From assembly GCA_963666055.2 (NCBI GenBank), contig CAXWPH010000006.1, positions 320,001 to 384,000 of the forward strand: DNA of 64,000 nucleotides. The letters run 5' to 3'. Numbering within the stretch: the first letter of the stretch is position 1; every line of letters begins with the position of its first letter. Positions 1,875 through 10,802 of the stretch are shown here, one piece after another. This DNA comes from Acidobacteriota bacterium. GTDB lineage: Bacteria; Acidobacteriota; UBA890; WLXD01. Made by a program: the position numbers and the translations under genes. A model generated the notes under the pieces. The model saw nothing but the letters and a program-made list of their open reading frames with translations, did no database searches and had not been told where the DNA came from.

Positions 1875-2064
1875 TTCTACGACCGGCGCCGGCCCCACTC
1901 ATCGCTCAACGACCGGACGCCCGCAGAGGCGTACACTGAGGACGGAGCTGACAGGAGCCCGGGGCTACGCCCCGTCTGCTGTCAGCCCCAGGCAGCTTGA
2001 ATCGTGAACCCGGATTCCACCTTAGCTGTGACCAAAACCTGTCCGAAGGATGGGGTCCACCTCT
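1875..2064 (+). mobile_element. IS3-family right-end fragment, related to IS at 31257-32442
   Basis: FYDRRRPHSSLNDRTPAEAY...QPQAA and terminal GGGGTCCACCTCT closely match the reverse complement of 31257-31447. Confidence 0.85.
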
Positions 2065-2123
2065 AGCAGGCCGTGGTGGAAGTGTGGCGGGCCTGGTGGA
2101 GTTACCTCACTTCGGTGGACACC
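2063..2123. mobile_element. Isolated MITE TIR (2067-2096) directly abutting a probable IS3-type end (TGGAGTTACCTCACTTCGGTGGACACC)
   Basis: TIR identical to 47122-47151; TG...GGACAC pattern is typical of IS3 inverted repeats. Confidence 0.6.
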
Positions 2124-2432
2124 TAAGCGCTTGGAGTTTGGTTGCTCGTAGTAGTAGAGAGGTGGGAACTTGTGGGAGCCGCGCAGCGGCTTCCAAGCGG
2201 CGGTGTGGATCGCGAAGCGATGTGCACGGACGCGGGCCAGATCTTGCTAAAGGTCAGCCTGGCCGACGGCTACGAAGCGCTCTGTAGGACGGACCCGCGC
2301 GGCTAGGCGAGCGGGCGCTCAAACCACCGGCGAAACCTCTCCGCGTGGTCACTCTGCGTCTCTCGCAAGACAGCACGAGGGACGGCTACAACCGAGAAGT
2401 CTCATAACATATTGATGTTACGAGGTTTACAA

Positions 2433-2481
2433 AGAGCCGGCGCGCGGATTCGAACCGCGAACCTGCTGATTACGAATCAGT
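2433..2481 (-). tRNA. 3' half of tRNA-Thr(CGT), an att-site duplication rather than a functional tRNA
   Basis: Reverse complement ACTGA-TTCGTAA-TCAGC-AGGTT-CGCGG-TTCGAAT-CCGCG-CGCCGGCT; no D-arm or 5' acceptor strand upstream; adjacent to integrase. Confidence 0.85.
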
Positions 2482-2486
2482 AAACG

Positions 2487-2628
2487 CTGCCACTTCCTGA
2501 CTCAACGCGCCCCTGCATTACCCGCATAACGTCCTACTATGATTGGGATTTATGGGGTATACTTGCGTCATAGGGAGTCAGGCAGTGGCAAGCAGGTTGG
2601 AGCCCTATACGGAGCCCGACTGGAGCTG
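2487..2628. repeat. att-arm region: 16-bp inverted repeat and three GGAGC(CC) direct repeats
   Basis: TGCCACTTCCTGACTC vs GAGTCAGGCAGTGGCA (1 mismatch); GGAGCCC at 2599 and 2611, GGAGCT at 2622. Confidence 0.6.
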
Positions 2629-2648
2629 CTGACAGGGAGGGGTGACCG

Positions 2649-3896
2649 GTGCCGAAGGTGAAACTCACCGTTCAGGGAGTCAAGGCCCTGCCGATCCCAG
2701 ACGAGGGCCGCGTGAACTACTTCGACGAGGTGGAGCCGGGCCTAGTTCTGCGCGTCGCGTCGTCGGGGACCAAAAGCTACTCCGTTATGTGGCGAAAGGG
2801 CGGCAAGCGGCCGCGCGTGACGCTGGGCATTACGGACGACTCCCCGAAGCGAGGACCGAATGCCAATACCCCTCGGCTCAGCCTCGCAGAGGCGCGGGAA
2901 GAAGCGAAGCGCCTTCTCGGAAACGTCCGACTCGGGAAGGACCCGGCGGAGGCAAAGCGAGAGCGCGCAGAGGCAATCACCTTCGCCAAGCTGGCGCGCG
3001 AGTACGTGGCGCGCTGGGCCTACCGCCGCAAGTCTCCCAAGGGTGCACGCGAAGACGAGCTGCGCATCGACCGAGTACTCATTCCGCGCTGGGGTCATTT
3101 CAAGGCGGCCGACATCCGCAAGCGCGACGTGGTGGAGCTGCTCGATGAGTACGCAGACGCCGGAAAAGTGTACGCCCGCAATCGCATGCAGTCGCTCGTC
3201 TCGAAGGTCTACAACTTCGGCATCAGGCGCGATGCCGTCCAAACCAATCCGGCTCAGGGCATCGACCGCGAGCCCGAGGAACCGCGGAAGCGCGTGCTCA
3301 CCGACTACGAGCTCAAAGTGCTATTGCCGCTATTCGAGGAGGAAGGCCTCGCCGGTCTTGGGTTCCGTTTCCTGCTGCTGACCGGCCAACGGCCGTCCGA
3401 GGTGTTCGGTATGCGGTGGTCCGAGGTGGACCGCGACACGTGGCTACTGCCGAAGGCGAGGACGAAGAACAAGCGCAGCAAGTATGCGCCCGACTTCCAC
3501 ACGGTCCCGCTGTCTCAACAGGCGTTCGAGGTGCTGCGCGAGCTGAAGGCACACCGAGACGATTCCGGCTTTGTCTTCCCCTCGGCGACCCGCAAGGACA
3601 TGCCCTTTACGAATTACTCGAAGGCGTATCGGCGCGTGAAGAAAGAAGCAAAGCTGGGGGAGAATTGGCGAGTGTACGACTTCAAGAGCACGATGCTCAC
3701 CGGCCTCGAGCGGCTCGGTGCGCCGGGGCCTGTTGTCTCGGCAGTGGCGGGGCACCTTCCGACGAACGTGACGCGGCAACACTACGCCTTTCACGACTTC
3801 GCCAACGAGAAGCGCGATGCGCTTAGCCGCTGGGGCGCGCACGTCGAGAAGCTCGACCCGGCGACGGTTGGCGAAGTCGTTGAGCTGCGACGGTAA
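2649..3896 (+). CDS. int: Tyrosine integrase with N-terminal arm-binding domain (P4/IntA-like)
   Basis: PGLVLRVASSGTKSY arm domain; LLTGQRPSEV, RTKNK, YDFKST (atypical HxxR), AGH, RQHY; GGAGG RBS. Confidence 0.93.
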   Translation: MPKVKLTVQGVKALPIPDEGRVNYFDEVEPGLVLRVASSGTKSYSVMWRKGGKRPRVTLGITDDSPKRGPNANTPRLSLAEAREEAKRLLGNVRLGKDPAEAKRERAEAITFAKLAREYVARWAYRRKSPKGAREDELRIDRVLIPRWGHFKAADIRKRDVVELLDEYADAGKVYARNRMQSLVSKVYNFGIRRDAVQTNPAQGIDREPEEPRKRVLTDYELKVLLPLFEEEGLAGLGFRFLLLTGQRPSEVFGMRWSEVDRDTWLLPKARTKNKRSKYAPDFHTVPLSQQAFEVLRELKAHRDDSGFVFPSATRKDMPFTNYSKAYRRVKKEAKLGENWRVYDFKSTMLTGLERLGAPGPVVSAVAGHLPTNVTRQHYAFHDFANEKRDALSRWGAHVEKLDPATVGEVVELRR

Positions 3897-3905
3897 GCGG
3901 CGACC

Positions 3906-4538
3906 ATGCGCCGCTGCGACGTCGCCAAAGTGGGGCGCTTGCGCGCGCAGGATATAGACGCAAACGAGGCGCCGCCTCCCGATGCGGAAGAAAAGCTGGA
4001 CACCTTGCGCTACCTCCGTGAATTGGACGAACGAGTACGCAGGACCGGCCTCGCCGACGACGTTGCGCTAGCTCCGAGAGATGCCGCAATCATCGATGAG
4101 GCTCTGAGTCGCGGCACCGCCAACAACTACGCTCGAATAGCACGCGGTGTCGGCGTGCATCGCTCCACGGTGATGCGGCGCGTTGAGAAGATGCTCGAAG
4201 CGGCGCCCTACCTCCAGCGCTTCTGGAAGGTGCTGCTCGGAGAAGCACCGCCGCTCAACCGCTCCTTCGATACGAGCAAGGACCCACGGTTGAGGCAATT
4301 GGCGAAGGCTCGCAACGCCGCCATGAACATCCTTCACCCGCGGCCGGTCGTCGAGCGCGGCAATGGGCAGATGAGCATCAGTTTCCCGTCATTTGCGGCG
4401 CTTTGGTCGTACGCCGAGTCCGGCCTTCCAGGGCCGAAACGGTGCCCTGTGTGCGGGCGTTTCGTCCGGGCGCGCGCGACCTACTGCGACCCGACTTGCC
4501 GCAAACGCGCCGAGCGGATCAGGAAGCGGCCGAAGTAG
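3906..4538 (+). CDS. HTH protein with C-terminal Cys4 zinc finger (CGNR-like)
   Basis: YARIARGVGVHRSTVMRRV helix-turn-helix; CPVC...YCDPTCRKR. Confidence 0.6.
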   Translation: MRRCDVAKVGRLRAQDIDANEAPPPDAEEKLDTLRYLRELDERVRRTGLADDVALAPRDAAIIDEALSRGTANNYARIARGVGVHRSTVMRRVEKMLEAAPYLQRFWKVLLGEAPPLNRSFDTSKDPRLRQLAKARNAAMNILHPRPVVERGNGQMSISFPSFAALWSYAESGLPGPKRCPVCGRFVRARATYCDPTCRKRAERIRKRPK

Positions 4539-4698
4539 TACGGGCCTGCTCACAACTTCCCGCTGAATCCCGCATTGAGTGGGGATCTCGCCGCGTCCGT
4601 CGGGGCGCCCATGTCACGGTTTCGTCGTTGGCGTGCAACGCCTCCGCATACGTGAGGACCACGGACGGCCCACGGTGCCCCACGACAGGAGGACGAAC

Positions 4699-4935
4699 AT
4701 GCCGGAGCAAGAGGTGCACCCGCTGCGACTCGCATTCACCGAGAGGGACTTGGATGCAGCGGGCATCCTGAGTCGGAAGACGCGCTATCGCATGCGCCGC
4801 CAGCGGACCTTTCCTGAGCCGGTGGTCGCTGGCGGGCGCCGGTTGTATAGGGCCTCAGATATCCATGCGTGGCTGCAAGATCCCGAACGGTGGGTGCGAG
4901 AGCACAGTAGTGGCGATGGCTGCGATGGAAGCTGA
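4699..4935 (+). CDS. AlpA-family / excisionase-like DNA-binding protein
   Basis: AGGAGG RBS then ATG 4699; LSRKTRYRMRRQRTFPEPVVAGGRRLYRASDIHAWL. Confidence 0.8.
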   Translation: MPEQEVHPLRLAFTERDLDAAGILSRKTRYRMRRQRTFPEPVVAGGRRLYRASDIHAWLQDPERWVREHSSGDGCDGS

Positions 4936-6593
4936 CGCAGCCGTGGCGGAGCGTTCTGCGCCCCATGATCTCCAAGCCGAACGAGCGATTCTCGGCGCGG
5001 TGATGTTGGAGCCGAACTCGATCGCCGCGGTCGCGCGTGCGGTCACCACCGACCACTTCTTCTCCGATCCTCCATCGGCACATCTACGAAGCGATGATTG
5101 GCCTTTATCGTCGCGGCAGTGCAATCGATCCGTCGACCCTACGCAGCGAACTCGCCGACCGAGACGCTCTTGGGCTCGCTGGCGGCGCCGCGTATATCTC
5201 GAGCTTGATCGACGGCTTGCCGTCGGTGGTGAACGTCCAGCACTACGCAGACATCATCAAGGGCAAGGCACGTCTTCGAGCCATTGCCGAGAGCGCCAAC
5301 GCGATCGTCACCTCCACGATGAACGGCGCCAAGGACCTCGACGAGCGTCTGGTTCATCTAGCCGTCAGCGCCAAGGCCAAGACGGAACGCCCCGCCGACT
5401 TCGAGCGTCTCGAGGAGGGCCGCTACCGGTTGACCGAGCCATGCTTCGGCATCGAACTCGAGGTCGACCACCTCAGACGAGAGCGCGGGCAGCTGCATGG
5501 GGAGTTAACCGTCTGGTGCTCGCTACCGGGCGCGAGGACGACTGACGGACTCCTCTCGAGCGGCTCGTTCAATCTGAGCAGCCAGCAGGTCCGCGGCTCT
5601 CAAGGCAAGTACCTCGCGTCTCGGGCCCGGACGGGGAACGAACTCGACTGGACCGGGCTGCTCGAGGAGTTTTGTCATCAGGTCCTGACGAGCGAGCGTG
5701 TTGGCGAACCAGCGGTGTTGCTACGCGATCTGCCGAGGCCGTTACCCGAAGAGGACTTCGAGGTCGGCGGGTTGCGGCTCCTGGCCCATCACCCTGTCGT
5801 CCTCTTCGGGGACGGCGGCTCGGCAAAGTCGTACATTGCTCTGCACGTCGCCGGTGTTCTGGCGCAGCGTGGGCTCCGAGTAGGGCTGTTCGATTGGGAG
5901 TTGTGCGGAGAGGATCACCGCGACCGGCTAGAACGCCTCTTCGGCGCCGACATGCCGGACGTTCGCTATCTCCGCTGCTCCCAGCCCTTGTGCCATATGG
6001 TGGACGCGGTTCGCCGGATGGTCGTCGATCACGAACTCGACTACATCATCCTCGATAGCTTGGCTTTCGCTTGTGACGGCCCGCCGGAGGCCGCGGAGGT
6101 CGCCGGCCGGTACTTCCAGGCGCTACGCAAGCTCGCGTCCATCGGGTCGCTGCACATCGCCCACATCTCGAAGGCAGAAGGTGCCGATCGGAAGCCGTTC
6201 GGTTCGGCCTTCTGGCACAACGGCGCCCGGTCGACTTGGTTCGCGAAGCGGGCCGATAGCGGCCCCGACGCGAGTCGCATCATGGTGTGGCTCTACAACC
6301 GCAAGGCCAACCTCGGGGCTCTACGCCCGCCTGTGGGCTTCGAGATCGCCTTCGGGCAGGAGCGCACGACGGTCCGCCCGGTCGACGTCGCAACCGTGCC
6401 AGACCTGTCCGGACAACTGTCCGTCCGCCAACGCATGGCGCACCTGTTACGGAGCGGCGGAATGAACGCGGATGAGCTCGCGACAGAACTCGACGCCAAG
6501 CTCGAGACGGTGAAGCGGACGGCCCGTAGATACCCGCGGCAGTTCACGATTCTGGATGGCGGTCGCCTTGGCCTTCTGGAGAAAACAGCATGA
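4925..6593 (+). CDS. Replication protein: DnaB N-terminal domain + AAA_25/RepA-like ATPase + C-terminal HTH; frameshift at about 5068
   Basis: PHDLQAERAILGAVML and HRHIYEAM...AGGAAYISSL (DnaB-N, split across two frames); GDGGSAKS Walker A, IILDS Walker B, HIAHISK. Confidence 0.8.
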
Positions 6594-6594
6594 G

Positions 6595-6692
6595 CGGACA
6601 AAGTGTCCGGACACTCCGGACAGACTGTCCTCGGGGAAGCGGACGGACACTCCCTCCCTTTAGGGAGGATGTCCTGTCCGGTCCTTGTCCGC
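6595..6692. repeat. Putative replication origin: clustered GGACA/TGTCC repeats around a palindrome
   Basis: Multiple (C)GGACA and TGTCC(G) copies; CCTCCC-TTTA-GGGAGG at 6653-6668; immediately after rep stop. Confidence 0.6.
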
Positions 6693-6957
6693 CGGGGAAT
6701 CAGAAAAGAAGAAAAAAGGCCGGAGGGGGGACGCCGGCAGCGAGACATCGCTCGAGATCACAGCTGGTGAAGGGCTCGACTACGCCGTTCCAGTCCATGA
6801 AAGGAGGCGCCCGGCTCTGCTCACTGGCGAGTTCTCTCGAACGGGGTTCGGGTGGGGCAGAGGGCAGACTTGCTGATCATGTATCAGTATGGCGAGGATA
6901 AACTCATGTATTTAAAGAGGTTAGAAGGGGTGGGCTCCATGCGGGCTCCGCAATGAG

Positions 6958-7458
6958 ATGGTGCTAGAAACCACACCCAAGCCGTCTCGAGAACAACACG
7001 AGAATGGCCCCGAAGACGGGGCCCGCGAAGCGCTCGACAGCCTTGCTGCCCGGCCGGATCGGGACCCGGCAACGGGGTGCTTCGTCAAGGGCAACACTGC
7101 GGCCGGCCGGACGCTGGCGCGCTCGGATGCGTTCTGGCAGGCGGTGGGCGCCGCGAAGCGCGAGCTGGCAGAGCGCGTGTGCTCTGACCTCGCCGTTAAT
7201 GGGGACGGCGCCGTGACGCTTGAAGGCCTCATTGACGGCTACGCAGAGACGCGCCTCCTTCGACACGCAATGTTCGTCCGGCTGGCGGAGCAGGGCGGAC
7301 CCGTTACAGGCAAGGGCAAGGCGCGAGCTCTGTTCTCGTCGTATCTGCAAGCACTCGACCGAGAGACGCGGCTGGCGCAGACGCTCGGCCTCGAGCGCAA
7401 AGCGAAGGCGGTCTCGCTGGCCGATGCGATCATTGATCGCCAAAAGGCGGGAGCGTAG
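6958..7458 (+). CDS. Putative terminase small subunit
   Basis: RDPATGCFVKGNTAA (G-x-F-x-K-G-N motif seen in TerS/DUF5681-like proteins); helical C-terminus LAQTLGLERKAK; overlaps terL. Confidence 0.55.
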   Translation: MVLETTPKPSREQHENGPEDGAREALDSLAARPDRDPATGCFVKGNTAAGRTLARSDAFWQAVGAAKRELAERVCSDLAVNGDGAVTLEGLIDGYAETRLLRHAMFVRLAEQGGPVTGKGKARALFSSYLQALDRETRLAQTLGLERKAKAVSLADAIIDRQKAGA

Positions 7459-8863
7459 GCGGACGAGCGGAGCACGAAAGTACACGCCGCGTGAGTTCCG
7501 ATGTTTGTGGCCCGAGTTCGAGGCTGACTCATGGAGGCCGTGGGGCTCGGTGGAAGACGCCATGTTCGGCGTCGAACCAGAGGACGCCGAACTCGTGCGG
7601 CGCATCACGGGCCGCGTGCGGGTGCCGTCCGACCCCGTCAAGGAGTTCTGGGCAATCGTCGGCCGCGGTGGGGGCAAGTCACGCTTCTGCGGTCGGCTTG
7701 CTGTCTACTTCGCCTGCGGACGCGCTTACAGGCGTGTTCCTGGCGAGCGAATCTTCGTCGCCATCTTCGCGCCCGATAGAAAGCAGGCCGCCGTCACGTT
7801 CCGGTACGTGCTCGGGCTGCTGAGGGCGGTGCCGGCGATCGAGCGGATGATCGTCCGTGCCCTGCGGGAGAGTATCGAACTCGACAACGGCGTCACGATC
7901 GAAGTCATTACCGCCAGCAAGGCGGCGCCGCGCGGCCGCTCCTATGCATTGGCAATCGTCGAAGAGGCAGCGTTCTTGCCCGCTGACGACGCTACCGACC
8001 CAGACAAGGAGCTGCTGCGTGCGCTGCGGCCGGCTCTCGCTCGCGTGCCGGGGTCGATGCTTGCGGTTGTATCGAGCCCCTACGCGCGCCGGGGCGAGCT
8101 GTGGCGAACCTGGATGGAGCACTTCGGCAAGGACGACTCCGATTCCGTGCTCGTTGTGCAGGCCGACACGTTGACGCTGAATCCGGCTTTTGACGAGCGG
8201 GAGATCGAGCGCGCATACACCGAAGACCCCGTTGCCGCTTCTGCGGAGTACGGTGCCCAGTTTCGAACGAACGTCTCAGGCTTCATCTCGCGTGAGGCTA
8301 TCGAGGGCTGCACGGTGCTCGATCGTCACGAGTTGCCGCCCGTGCCCGGCGTGTCATACAGCGGCTTCGTCGACTTCGCCGGTGGCTCTGGGCAGGATTC
8401 GGCGACGCTGGCCATTGCGCACCGGGAGACACGAGACGGGCAAAGCGTTGTGGTGCTGGACCTGGTGCGGGAAGTCCGGCCGCCGTTTTCGCCAGAGCAA
8501 GTCTGCCGCGACTTCGCCGACGATCTAAAGCGCTACCGGCTCAGCCGTGCGACGGCGGATCGCTACGCCGCGGACTTCGCCACCGAGGCCATGCGACGAC
8601 AGGAGGTCGACCTCAGGCCGGCGGGCAAGCCAAAATCGGACCTGTACAGGGAGCTCTTGCCTGCGCTCAACAGCGGCAGCATCGAGCTGTTAGATCTACC
8701 GCGCCTGGCAGCCCAGCTCGGCGGCTTGGAGCGCCGTGTGGCCCGTGGTGGCCGCGACAGCATTGACCATGCACCGGGTGGCCATGACGACGTCGCCAAT
8801 GCCGTGGCCGGGGCGCTGGTAGCGGTGGCGAGGGAACGTCGACCACGCTGGGGCTTTGCCTGA
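7424..8863 (+). CDS. Terminase large subunit
   Basis: GRGGGKS Walker A, IVEEAAF Walker B, VSSP coupling motif, FVDFAGG and HDDVANA RNase H-like nuclease acids; start uncertain. Confidence 0.85.
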   Translation: MRSLIAKRRERRRTSGARKYTPREFRCLWPEFEADSWRPWGSVEDAMFGVEPEDAELVRRITGRVRVPSDPVKEFWAIVGRGGGKSRFCGRLAVYFACGRAYRRVPGERIFVAIFAPDRKQAAVTFRYVLGLLRAVPAIERMIVRALRESIELDNGVTIEVITASKAAPRGRSYALAIVEEAAFLPADDATDPDKELLRALRPALARVPGSMLAVVSSPYARRGELWRTWMEHFGKDDSDSVLVVQADTLTLNPAFDEREIERAYTEDPVAASAEYGAQFRTNVSGFISREAIEGCTVLDRHELPPVPGVSYSGFVDFAGGSGQDSATLAIAHRETRDGQSVVVLDLVREVRPPFSPEQVCRDFADDLKRYRLSRATADRYAADFATEAMRRQEVDLRPAGKPKSDLYRELLPALNSGSIELLDLPRLAAQLGGLERRVARGGRDSIDHAPGGHDDVANAVAGALVAVARERRPRWGFA

Positions 8864-8990
8864 GCGCAGAGGAGGAAGAAAGTCGTTCACGTCGCCAGCT
8901 GCGCTCGTCTTGTTGACATTGCCGGCTTGGAACCGGACACGGAGGTCCAGCCCCCTCCGGGGCCGCCGGGTTGGCGTGAACAGGTTCAAT

Positions 8991-9046
8991 TAGGTTCAGG
9001 ACCTAGTGGGTGCAAGCCCGTGGGGGTTCAAGTCCCTCCTTGGGCA
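8991..9046 (+). tRNA. 3' half of tRNA-Leu(CAG), att-site copy 1
   Basis: TAGG-TTCAGGA-CCTAG anticodon arm, long variable arm GGGTGCAAGCCC, GGGGG-TTCAAGT-CCCTC T-arm; 5' half absent. Confidence 0.85.
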
Positions 9047-9302
9047 CTACCCTTAAGCTACTCTGTACAAAGGAGATCCGTCCTACAAAAGGCCGGATCT
9101 CGACACTCACGTTCCAAGCTGAACGTTCAGCGATCTAACATCCATCTAACATTTCGTCGCTGGTCCGGTGTCAACAGGGCTGAGCCTGGTGCGATTCTCC
9201 GAGGTAATCCTCTTTCGTCGACGGTTCCTCCCGCCTTCTTTCTGGCCGCGGGTTGCTCCCAGAGGATTTCGCTTCAGGACGCGTTACCCTTCGCGCATTC
9301 GC

Positions 9303-10802
9303 CTACCTCACCGTGGAGCGGACCGACTTGCTGGCCGCCTGCAGATCGCCGTCCGTCGGCGTCACGGTGCACTCTAGGCGGTCGCCCTTGGTGAACAGGT
9401 CGGTGGCGAGGGCGTCGGAGTGCGCTGCGATGGTGACGTCGCGTACGACCCTGCCGTCTACTTTCCATACGTACTGGTACGAGACGACGTCGTAGTCGGG
9501 GTCGTCGGTCACCAGCGGGTACTTGATCTCGCACAACGGCACTCTGCGGGCCTTCGGCTTGTTGCGAAACCTGACCCTCTTGAGCGCCACCGGCGCCCGG
9601 TTCAGGTCAGCATCTCGCTTGGTCATGACCTCGTAGGGCATCGTGGCGAGCTTCTTGCCGTTGACGTGCAGCTCGAGTTTCCAGGTGCCGGTGAAGACGC
9701 GCATGCCGTTGACGATCCAGCGCTGCCTCCACCAGCTTTGGTGGGAAAACTCGATGTTGCCGAGCTTACGCGCGCCAGTGTCCAACGCGACGGAGTTATT
9801 GGGCCGCCGGAACACCACCCGCTGGGTACTGTTGGCCGGTAGGTTCTGCAGCAGGAACCAGATGTAGAGCCATTCATCGTCGGTCTGAAACTGGCCCGAC
9901 GAGGGCAATTGCTCGGGCGGTAGCTTGTCCTCGGCCAGCGTGCGGAGCTCTTCGTGGGTGATCCCGGCGTCGAACAGGTAGGTGTTGCGCTTGAACTTGA
10001 GCTGCTTGACGAAGCCGCTGGCGCCCGGGTTGCAGCGGCCTGCGAACGGCTCGGTAGCAACCCGATTCACCCAGGTCTCGAAATGCAGGTGCGGTCCGGA
10101 ACTGTAGCCGCTCGAGGCCGTCATGCCGATGCTCTGCCCGGCTACGACGTCATCACCCATCTTGACCGCGACGCTGCCTTTGCGCATGTGCCAGTACAGC
10201 GACAGCTGACCGCCGCCGTGGCTGATGATGACGTAGTTGGCGGGCTTGTACGTCAGCGTCGTCGAGCGGTCGGAATTACCGTCCTGAGCAGCGACCACGC
10301 GTCCGTCCAGCGCCGCGTAGATCGGCACCCCGATGTCCTGGAACGCGAAGCTCCGCACGTCAGAGTCGTGTCCCTGGTGCCCATCATAGGTGTAGTCGGT
10401 GCAATTCCAATCCAAGATGGCGGCATCTCCTTGAGTCGGGTCCAGGTCGACGAAGCCAGAAAAGAACAGGTCGCCTTCGTGCACCCCGGCCTGCGGGTAA
10501 AAGGGGTAGCGGGTCGAGATGTCAGTTTTGGTTGCCGGCGGCAACCCGTAGGTGCGCTCGTACGCGTCGAGCGCAGCGTGGACCCTCGCGTACTCGGCCG
10601 CGGTGATGTCGGAGCCAAGCGTGGCACGCTGTTCGGGCGACAGCTCCGACGTGAACCCCTGCCATCGTCCCTGACCGTTCGGAGCGATCAGCTCACCGGT
10701 TCCGATCAGGCGGTGGCGGCCAGCGTGCTGTCCGGTGGCGTTACCCGATGGCGACACGAGCGCTAACGATACGACGACCAGGCAGATCCCGAGTCTTGTC
10801 AT
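9303..10802 (-). CDS. Secreted M23-family metallopeptidase with C-terminal beta-rich domains
   Basis: Signal peptide; HQGHD, YWHM, SSGPHLHFE motifs. Confidence 0.85.
   Translation of the reverse strand: MTRLGICLVVVSLALVSPSGNATGQHAGRHRLIGTGELIAPNGQGRWQGFTSELSPEQRATLGSDITAAEYARVHAALDAYERTYGLPPATKTDISTRYPFYPQAGVHEGDLFFSGFVDLDPTQGDAAILDWNCTDYTYDGHQGHDSDVRSFAFQDIGVPIYAALDGRVVAAQDGNSDRSTTLTYKPANYVIISHGGGQLSLYWHMRKGSVAVKMGDDVVAGQSIGMTASSGYSSGPHLHFETWVNRVATEPFAGRCNPGASGFVKQLKFKRNTYLFDAGITHEELRTLAEDKLPPEQLPSSGQFQTDDEWLYIWFLLQNLPANSTQRVVFRRPNNSVALDTGARKLGNIEFSHQSWWRQRWIVNGMRVFTGTWKLELHVNGKKLATMPYEVMTKRDADLNRAPVALKRVRFRNKPKARRVPLCEIKYPLVTDDPDYDVVSYQYVWKVDGRVVRDVTIAAHSDALATDLFTKGDRLECTVTPTDGDLQAASKSVRSTVR

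Follow-up and report, generated by a model that had tools for sequence, protein, structure and literature searches.

A damaged, mosaic tRNA-integrated island encoding a large and a likely small terminase subunit in an Acidobacteriota genome, and its relatives

Layout of the element and its packaging genes

The stretch of DNA described here, referred to as the window, comprises 64,000 nucleotides from the 5.7-Mb genome of an Acidobacteriota bacterium (positions 320001-384000 of contig C6; G000:C6:320001-384000). Near its start lies a mobile element of ~6.6 kb (2434-9047) with six genes, all on the + strand. It encodes a large terminase subunit (TerL) and likely also a small one (TerS), and there is no open reading frame (ORF) for a capsid or portal protein between the two tRNA halves that form its ends.

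On the left the element ends in the 3' half of a tRNA-Thr(CGT) gene on the - strand (2434..2480; 47 nt, 97.9 % identical to an intact copy on contig C12), an attR-type site of the integrase module. This half is followed by the gene of a 415-aa tyrosine integrase with an arm-binding domain (2649..3896), which matched PF00589 (E 1e-17), PF13356, PF22022 and phrog_1 (E 3e-60), and by that of a 210-aa helix-turn-helix (HTH) protein with a C-terminal four-cysteine motif, CxxC...CxxxC (3906..4538). The Pfam matches of the latter, to HTH and zinc-ribbon families, were weak and all below the cut-off; judging from the position of its gene, it is likely a regulator. A 78-aa AlpA/excisionase-like HTH protein (4699..4935) matched phrog_66 (E 1e-5) and, below the cut-off, PF12728 (E 3e-5). 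Next come the replication gene rep (~4916..6593), an iteron-like cluster (6596..6690), an ORF for a TerS-like protein of 166 aa (6958..7458) and terL, encoding ~466 aa (7463..8863). The right end, beginning 128 nt past the terL stop, is the 3' half of a tRNA-Leu(CAG) gene on the + strand (8991..9047; 89.5 % identical to the resident tRNA-Leu(CAG)), an attR-type site of the terL-end module. An earlier reading made from the sequence only had already given this gene order on the + strand, the lack of capsid and portal genes and the att-like tRNA half behind terL, and on all three points the domain and PHROG matches and the inspection of the ends agreed with it. A further ORF, at 6590-6901 over the repeat cluster, had no family match and was judged spurious.

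The identity of the 7463-8863 frame as a large terminase is firm. It matched phrog_2 with E 2e-26 and, with a profile of the family, T4 gp17 with E 3e-4. In 66 aligned TerLs the Walker A residues R67, G70 and K71, the Walker B residue E167 and the nuclease residues D303, D365 and D441-442 are invariant or nearly so, and the TerL of the window retains the ATPase and nuclease residues, its Walker B reading EE as in 5 of the 66. The sequence-only reading had called this TerL full, which is correct for its conserved residues but not for its start: the ancestral start codon, ATG in the 88 % identical paralogue on contig C14, has been mutated to ACG at 7463. Alternative in-frame starts are ATG at 7424 and TTG at 7505. 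Sequence comparison suggests that both terminase genes are under purifying selection, with dN/dS values of 0.14 and 0.17 for terL against two paralogues of the same genome and of 0.18 for the terS-like gene against the C14 paralogue.

The 166-aa protein encoded in front of TerL, a position that points to this role, is likely TerS, although it had no match in Pfam or PHROGs and a search of PDB sequences with its profile gave nothing meaningful. In the ESM Atlas it lies at 0.93 to a cluster of which 56 % of the members carry PF05119. Its predicted structure (pLDDT 81), of likely P27/HK97-like fold, gave many weak matches to P27-type TerS proteins in BFVD, all with E > 0.001, and was aligned with the HK97 TerS 8pop over 84 residues (Z 7.5, rmsd 3.1), a result that unrelated helical hairpins tie. 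A complex of the two subunits was predicted with a score of 0.32, the best control reaching 0.00; the runs shared at least 84 % of the contacts and the partners had pLDDT of at least 66. Among 157 solved pairs 116 attained the mark applied to such predictions, and among 215 mismatched pairs 2 did so; with values of 0.60 or below it was attained by only 18 of the 157 and by both of the mismatches. The predicted complex may be taken as weak support for the pairing.

A helicase-type Rep had also been proposed. The DnaB N-terminal domain (PF00772) and the AAA_25 helicase-type ATPase (PF13481) were found, without a detectable primase domain, but the gene is split by a one-base frameshift near 5069-5072, with PF00772 matching on either side of it. 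Contigs assembled from sequencing runs X4, X5 and X7 have the identical frameshift, while the frame is open in one contig of run X8; unbroken relatives of rep are present at C6:282-284 kb (46 % identity) and in G005, a genome of another genus (60 %). The cluster behind rep contains nine copies of GGACA/TGTCC within 95 nt, with inverted pairs, and no other 110-nt stretch of the genome has nine or more; the motif was picked after inspection of the sequence. Two relatives of the element have other short repeats at the same position after rep, as would be expected of element-specific origins, and the iteron-like cluster is likely a replication origin.

Mosaic origin and damage of the window copy

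The tRNA halves were located by BLAST against the tRNAs of the genome itself; ARAGORN did not report a tRNA anywhere in the window, nor did Rfam match anything in the stretch 2000-9500. The Thr and Leu halves do not form a direct repeat, both face outwards and neither is an intact tRNA. As the two ends are halves of different tRNAs, the element must be regarded as a mosaic and not as one unit bounded by att sites. Among 26 genomes of the class, the closest integrase (56 % identity) was found in G002, again behind a 3' half of tRNA-Thr on the - strand, and the left arm is therefore assigned to a Thr-type element. In the G002 element (L167; G002:C9, ~2.599-2.608 Mb) an intact tRNA-Thr(TGT) lies 7.9 kb away and there is no terminase in between; its AlpA is likewise the closest to that of the window. 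The stretch 8780-9048, i.e. the last 84 nt of terL, the spacer and the Leu half, recurs on contig C14 with 95 % identity and in G005 with 99.6-100 %, the G005 copy being interrupted by an insertion sequence. This recurrence shows that an att half immediately behind terL is a genuine end which several elements share, and it comes from a Leu-type element. The host genome has two further such elements, on C6 and C14, and recombination among its islands is the likely source of the mosaic.

Independent runs of two studies yielded contigs that cover 2461-7409 with no or one difference, one of them bridging rep and terS; no contig spans the whole element. Joints in some contigs correspond to deletion alleles. 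One of these, linking 5735 with 6805, was seen in three runs, which come from two studies, and is borderline with 30 letters on its short side. A joint from 4208 to 8791 was dismissed, as it had only 20 letters on one side. In three runs labelled as sponge or marine metagenomes only 5-9 % of the words were found, and no habitat is claimed. With lesions in rep and at the start of terL, the window copy is probably unable to complete its cycle alone. Being a decayed mosaic with mismatched ends, it cannot by itself demonstrate an intact element, and its damage also makes it a poor experimental model. The sequence-only reading had raised the possibility that it is a truncated larger element; for the family, an origin as relics is largely refuted (see below).

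The host genome contains 35 orphan 3' halves of tRNA genes (Thr-CGT, Leu-CAG, Met and others), often a few hundred bases apart, including those at C6:241083, 286823, 329047 and 354073. Three Leu halves stand behind an intact tRNA-Leu(CAG) and share its direction, making up a ~113-kb tandem array of islands. Behind terL on contig C14 (G000:C14:500.4-503.6 kb), and likewise in G005 (L155:11.6-14.7 kb), there is a 3.2-kb module with an AlpA-like gene and a gene for an 824-aa primase, 99 % identical across the two genera, after which the 3' end of terL occurs once more. The module may be a parasite of the satellite, or else a tandem copy that has suffered a deletion.

Recurrence in genomes, viral contigs and plasmids

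Scanning GTDB genomes for relatives of the window TerL gave 93, the best 80 of which were analysed, and IMG/VR contributed 60 loci. The viral sample was selected by TerL, because the alignment of the TerS family was too diverse for scanning viral contigs. Genes were called with our own script and clustered, and three sets were compared with PHROGs: one representative per cluster of the proteins of at least 95 aa encoded on the + strand downstream of terL (256 proteins); 100 of 125 larger upstream or minus-strand genes, the 25 left out being mostly presumed host flank genes; and 46 hand-picked proteins, mostly from newer viral loci. From the portals and capsids that this brought up, hidden Markov models (HMMs) were made and used to search all ORFs.

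Close homologues of TerL consistently continuing into portal and capsid genes had been named in advance as the sign of a deleted prophage or capsid-forming satellite; the 80 genome loci did not show this. With PHROGs and HMMs together, a portal was found in none of the 80 genome loci and a major capsid protein in two (L021 and L069), and at least 3 kb of downstream sequence was available in 64 of the 77 loci with a callable terL. Dozens of unrelated genomes have the layout of integrase, AlpA, Rep, TerS and TerL with neither portal nor capsid. A tRNA is present in 46 of the genome loci, and in 25 of these integrase and terL are enclosed by a direct repeat; such att repeats show that the family integrates site-specifically at tRNA genes. 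These complete elements are 8.6-20.0 kb long (median 13.7 kb), four of the repeats being just 14-17 nt. In 22 of the 25 the repeat stands just before the integrase gene and the intact tRNA beyond terL on the - strand, the same orientation as at the left end of the window element.

At least one virion gene was found in 13 of the 25 complete elements and none was detected in 11, while L035 was miscalled and left unscored. The genes concerned, partly inferred from cluster membership, encode a tape measure, head protease, neck, baseplate hub, fibre or capsid protein, and they never amount to a full head module. Nine of the 11 elements without a detected virion gene carry an unannotated protein of ~200-300 aa behind terL, and the bare motor seen in the window is therefore a minority form. 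An unannotated all-helical family of 200-310 aa is encoded closely after terL at L047:11353-12165 and in 19 other loci. The commonest protein behind terL is predicted to be an all-helical bundle (18-row alignment, pLDDT 84); its structural matches were generic, with a best Z of 8.8, and BFVD gave no match at E <= 0.001. Such a bundle is compatible with a scaffold or Sid-like role but does not point to it.

The TerS-like family is present in 62 of the 80 genome loci and 30 of the 60 IMG/VR loci. Among representatives of clusters at 50 % identity, 6,638 are related to it at E <= 1e-10, and it has no match in 50,697 phage records. It was never found with portal and capsid together: the six viral loci with both do not have it, and among the viral loci with the family, three contain a portal without a capsid and another three a capsid without a portal. 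In phage-type contigs TerL is paired with three portal families (phrog_146, phrog_145 and phrog_12/2662).

Several loci bear signs of mobility. Two IMG/VR contigs of 9.4 and 9.8 kb (L088 and L089) hold integrase, terS, terL, neck and tape-measure genes without portal or capsid and have terminal repeats of 60 and 114 nt, which shows a circular or repeated form, not encapsidation. A module of primase, resolvase, terS, terL and DUF2213 lies on a ~15-kb ParA plasmid of Komagataeibacter nataicola, in two records with the unit present about twice in each, and terS-terL was also found on a plasmid of Methylobacterium sp. 4-46. The plasmid loci are L168, L169 and L170; for those of K. nataicola, which carry DUF2213, a VapE primase and ParA, no integrase is listed. 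Genes resembling Holliday resolvases, and serine-resolvase genes, often adjoin terS-terL. The sister elements of G000 and G005, which belong to two genera, share blocks of 1.3-4.2 kb at 94-97 % identity, and their sister modules are 95-99 % identical, which suggests recent transfer, or may reflect cross-binning.

A further relative, Virus Rctr16k (L092; KX853514.1, 16.7 kb), has an integrase, a replication gene, a terminase with 28 % identity to the window TerL and a tail gene, and no annotated capsid or portal. It may be a similar satellite.

Relation to known satellites, proposed mechanism and alternatives

The feature is real, and at the level of the family it is a variant of the satellites resembling phage-inducible chromosomal islands (PICIs). 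We consider it fairly probable that the window element is a damaged, mosaic member of a widespread family of tRNA-integrated, PICI-like islands, which are likely satellites that dock a packaging motor of their own on the proheads of a helper phage. [quoted passage not shown] The PICI model of SatelliteFinder, as far as its description goes, comprises an integrase, an AlpA-type regulator, a primase-replicase and a small terminase in ~10 kb, and TerL is specific to capsid-forming PICIs (cf-PICIs) as compared to PICIs (de Sousa et al. 2023, PMC10085698). Measured against this model, the window element has the integrase at one end, a regulator of AlpA/MerR/Stl type (a weak match), a replicase module (frameshifted) and the candidate TerS gene in the same order, and a size of the ~10-kb class with chromosomal integration. 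It differs in encoding TerL, with no capsid-morphogenesis gene between terL and the att half, in a TerS-like family that lies outside Pfam and PHROGs, and in the lack of matching att direct repeats, which are present in the 25 complete relatives. Like cf-PICIs, as outlined in PMC10085698 and 10.1101/2022.09.08.507074, it has both terminase subunits (TerL firm, TerS likely) behind the integrase-AlpA-Rep arm. It lacks the capsid, portal, protease, head-tail adaptor or connector and HNH genes described for them; cf-PICIs build heads and take tails, whereas the present family would need heads too. The portal, major capsid and tail modules of a tailed prophage are likewise absent from the window element.

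A precedent in gene content is NitKor-E1 of Candidatus Nitrosopumilus koreensis AR1, an integrated element with a tyrosine integrase in which, according to the published account, TerS and TerL are the only genes of tailed viruses (Krupovic et al. 2019, PMC6563490). It shares integrase, TerS and TerL with the window element, a likeness in gene content, and differs as a single, cryptic archaeal case that was read as a relic. VEIMEs (integrative mobile elements that are encapsidated in virions; PMC9618062) are also small integrative elements encoding no major capsid, and their description expects the large subunit to come from the helper. PICI-like tycheposons (10.1101/2020.12.28.424599) integrate at tRNAs, and partial tRNAs are scattered in islands as in the present host. 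The descriptions available for VEIMEs and tycheposons name a TerS or a capsid gene and no TerL among the genes carried. The EPIPs of Mycolicibacterium (PMC12822802) resemble many relatives of the window element in combining TerS with a tape-measure gene; the genes listed for them do not include TerL, and they have a serine integrase and an actinobacterial host. A satellite family with TerS and TerL but without capsid was not found described in the literature searched, in which subscription papers were little covered, and the supplementary tables of SatelliteFinder or of the VEIME study could hold variants. There is thus one printed precedent, NitKor-E1, and no described family was found.

From the PICI-type anatomy we infer the following course of events. 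On infection by a helper, the AlpA-like protein would trigger excision, and Rep would copy the excised circle from the iteron cluster. The TerS of the element would recognise its own DNA, and its TerL would cut this DNA and pump it into proheads built by the helper. With both subunits of its own, the element would need compatibility with the helper portal only, and not the compatibility between TerS and TerL required of classical PICIs; because phage-type contigs combine TerL with three portal families, a broad portal compatibility is plausible. The tape-measure, protease, neck or helical proteins of many relatives may tune or subvert the helper virion. Of the motor-only satellite proposed in the sequence-only reading, the recurrent, att-bounded layout is confirmed in 25 genomes, but most relatives carry extra genes, namely an unannotated helical protein of 200-300 aa and often tape-measure, protease, neck or fibre genes, and the copy in which it was seen is a decayed mosaic.

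A number of observations weigh against this satellite reading. A portal is present in 29 of the 60 IMG/VR loci with the same TerL, and three of the portal-bearing loci (L115, L123 and L126) are among the nearest TerL relatives and share a branch with 100 % support with the window TerL. A capsid was matched in just 6 of these 29 loci, and capsid detection is hence incomplete. The approximately unbiased (AU) test rejected a single phage clade (p 6e-9, 13 versus 27 rows), in a 40-row subset hand-picked from 123 and a quick tree without a mixture model; as phage-type and capsid-less TerLs are intermixed, TerL has changed from one context to the other repeatedly. The terminase module is optional, given that the 7.9-kb G002 element with the closest integrase has none. 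Of the 26 genomes of the class, 7 contain TerL, frequently in broken form, and many copies in near relatives are damaged. Neither circular junctions, which the sequence-only reading proposed to look for, nor raised depth appeared for this copy in the contigs of four runs. Portal searches of the host genome were empty, the phrog_146 profile giving no match in control genomes either, and with a capsid fragment at C10:29.4 kb as the only one in the genome, no helper is visible.

It is unlikely, in our view, that interference or DNA processing is what the terminase is retained for, i.e. that it poisons or competes with the helper motor, aborts infection or resolves concatemers, while the element itself moves by generic transduction or with the helper TerL. 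Packaging is a known target, as PLE satellites are reported to attack phage TerL with Gpi (10.1101/2024.04.22.590561), and both the optional terminase module and the resolvase genes flanking terS-terL would be in line with such a role. A dominant-negative decoy would not need the ATPase and nuclease sets to be invariant in 66 sequences, and TerS and TerL travel together, the accessory genes being ones for virion assembly. Somewhat less likely still is a relic origin, in which prophages or capsid-forming satellites would have been stripped of their head genes by deletion, terL surviving only as the first gene of the late operon. This would account for the single structural genes scattered after terL in 13 of the 25 complete elements, for the viral loci of the TerS family with portal only or capsid only, for the intermixing with phage TerLs and for the decay of the window copy, and NitKor-E1 was read in this way (PMC6563490, as far as its account goes). 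Random deletion would often spare the portal, which comes next after terL, yet it is absent in 80 of 80 genome loci; the att pairs are intact, the sizes narrow and the left arm of PICI type. The TerS family was found in none of the six loci with a full head module and in no phage record, the terminase genes appear to be under purifying selection, and plasmid-borne and circular forms exist. For the family, the relic explanation is largely refuted.

An assembly chimera of related islands, in a metagenome bin as rich in repeats as this one, is a very improbable source of the arrangement with two tRNA halves. The orphan tRNA halves, the duplicated tRNA clusters and the lack of a contig across the whole element would allow for it; against it stand the nearly identical contigs of two studies covering 2461-7409, one joining rep to terS, the recurrence of the terL-to-Leu end on C14 and in G005, and a bin contamination of 2.3 %. 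A chimera would also leave the family-level result untouched.

Beyond the window element, we tentatively suggest, with somewhat less confidence than for the satellite reading itself, that there is a large and so far undescribed class of head-less satellites in Alphaproteobacteria, Gammaproteobacteria, Acidobacteriota and others, also on plasmids, which have a complete packaging motor, need only a compatible portal and swap virion genes with their helpers. If this is true, the proheads of unrelated helper phages could be filled by one and the same element, with its own DNA and possibly with host DNA from its flanks. The satellite families considered here either steer the large terminase of the helper by a small subunit of their own or construct entire heads; a full motor with a borrowed head is the combination missing among these, and it would loosen helper specificity. 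The family is easily overlooked: four RefSeq plasmid records turned up, in which TerL is annotated as 'hypothetical protein', and TerS, for all its thousands of relatives, belongs to no family of Pfam or PHROGs. Cultured carriers include Sinorhizobium fredii USDA 205 (locus L047), Rhizobium, Acetobacter and Komagataeibacter nataicola (plasmid pKNA06), which makes the satellite idea directly testable.

Two features of the window lie outside the element. A 34-nt repeat at 1191-1224 and 2063-2096 has hundreds of copies in the genome, often as inverted pairs ~280 nt apart, and probably marks the ends of a small non-autonomous transposon. Past the Leu half, the DNA of 9050-10802, which contains an M23 peptidase gene on the - strand (9303-10802), recurs behind Leu halves on contigs C15 (99.9 % over 1.5 kb) and C7 (94 % over 0.9 kb) and is the start of another island.

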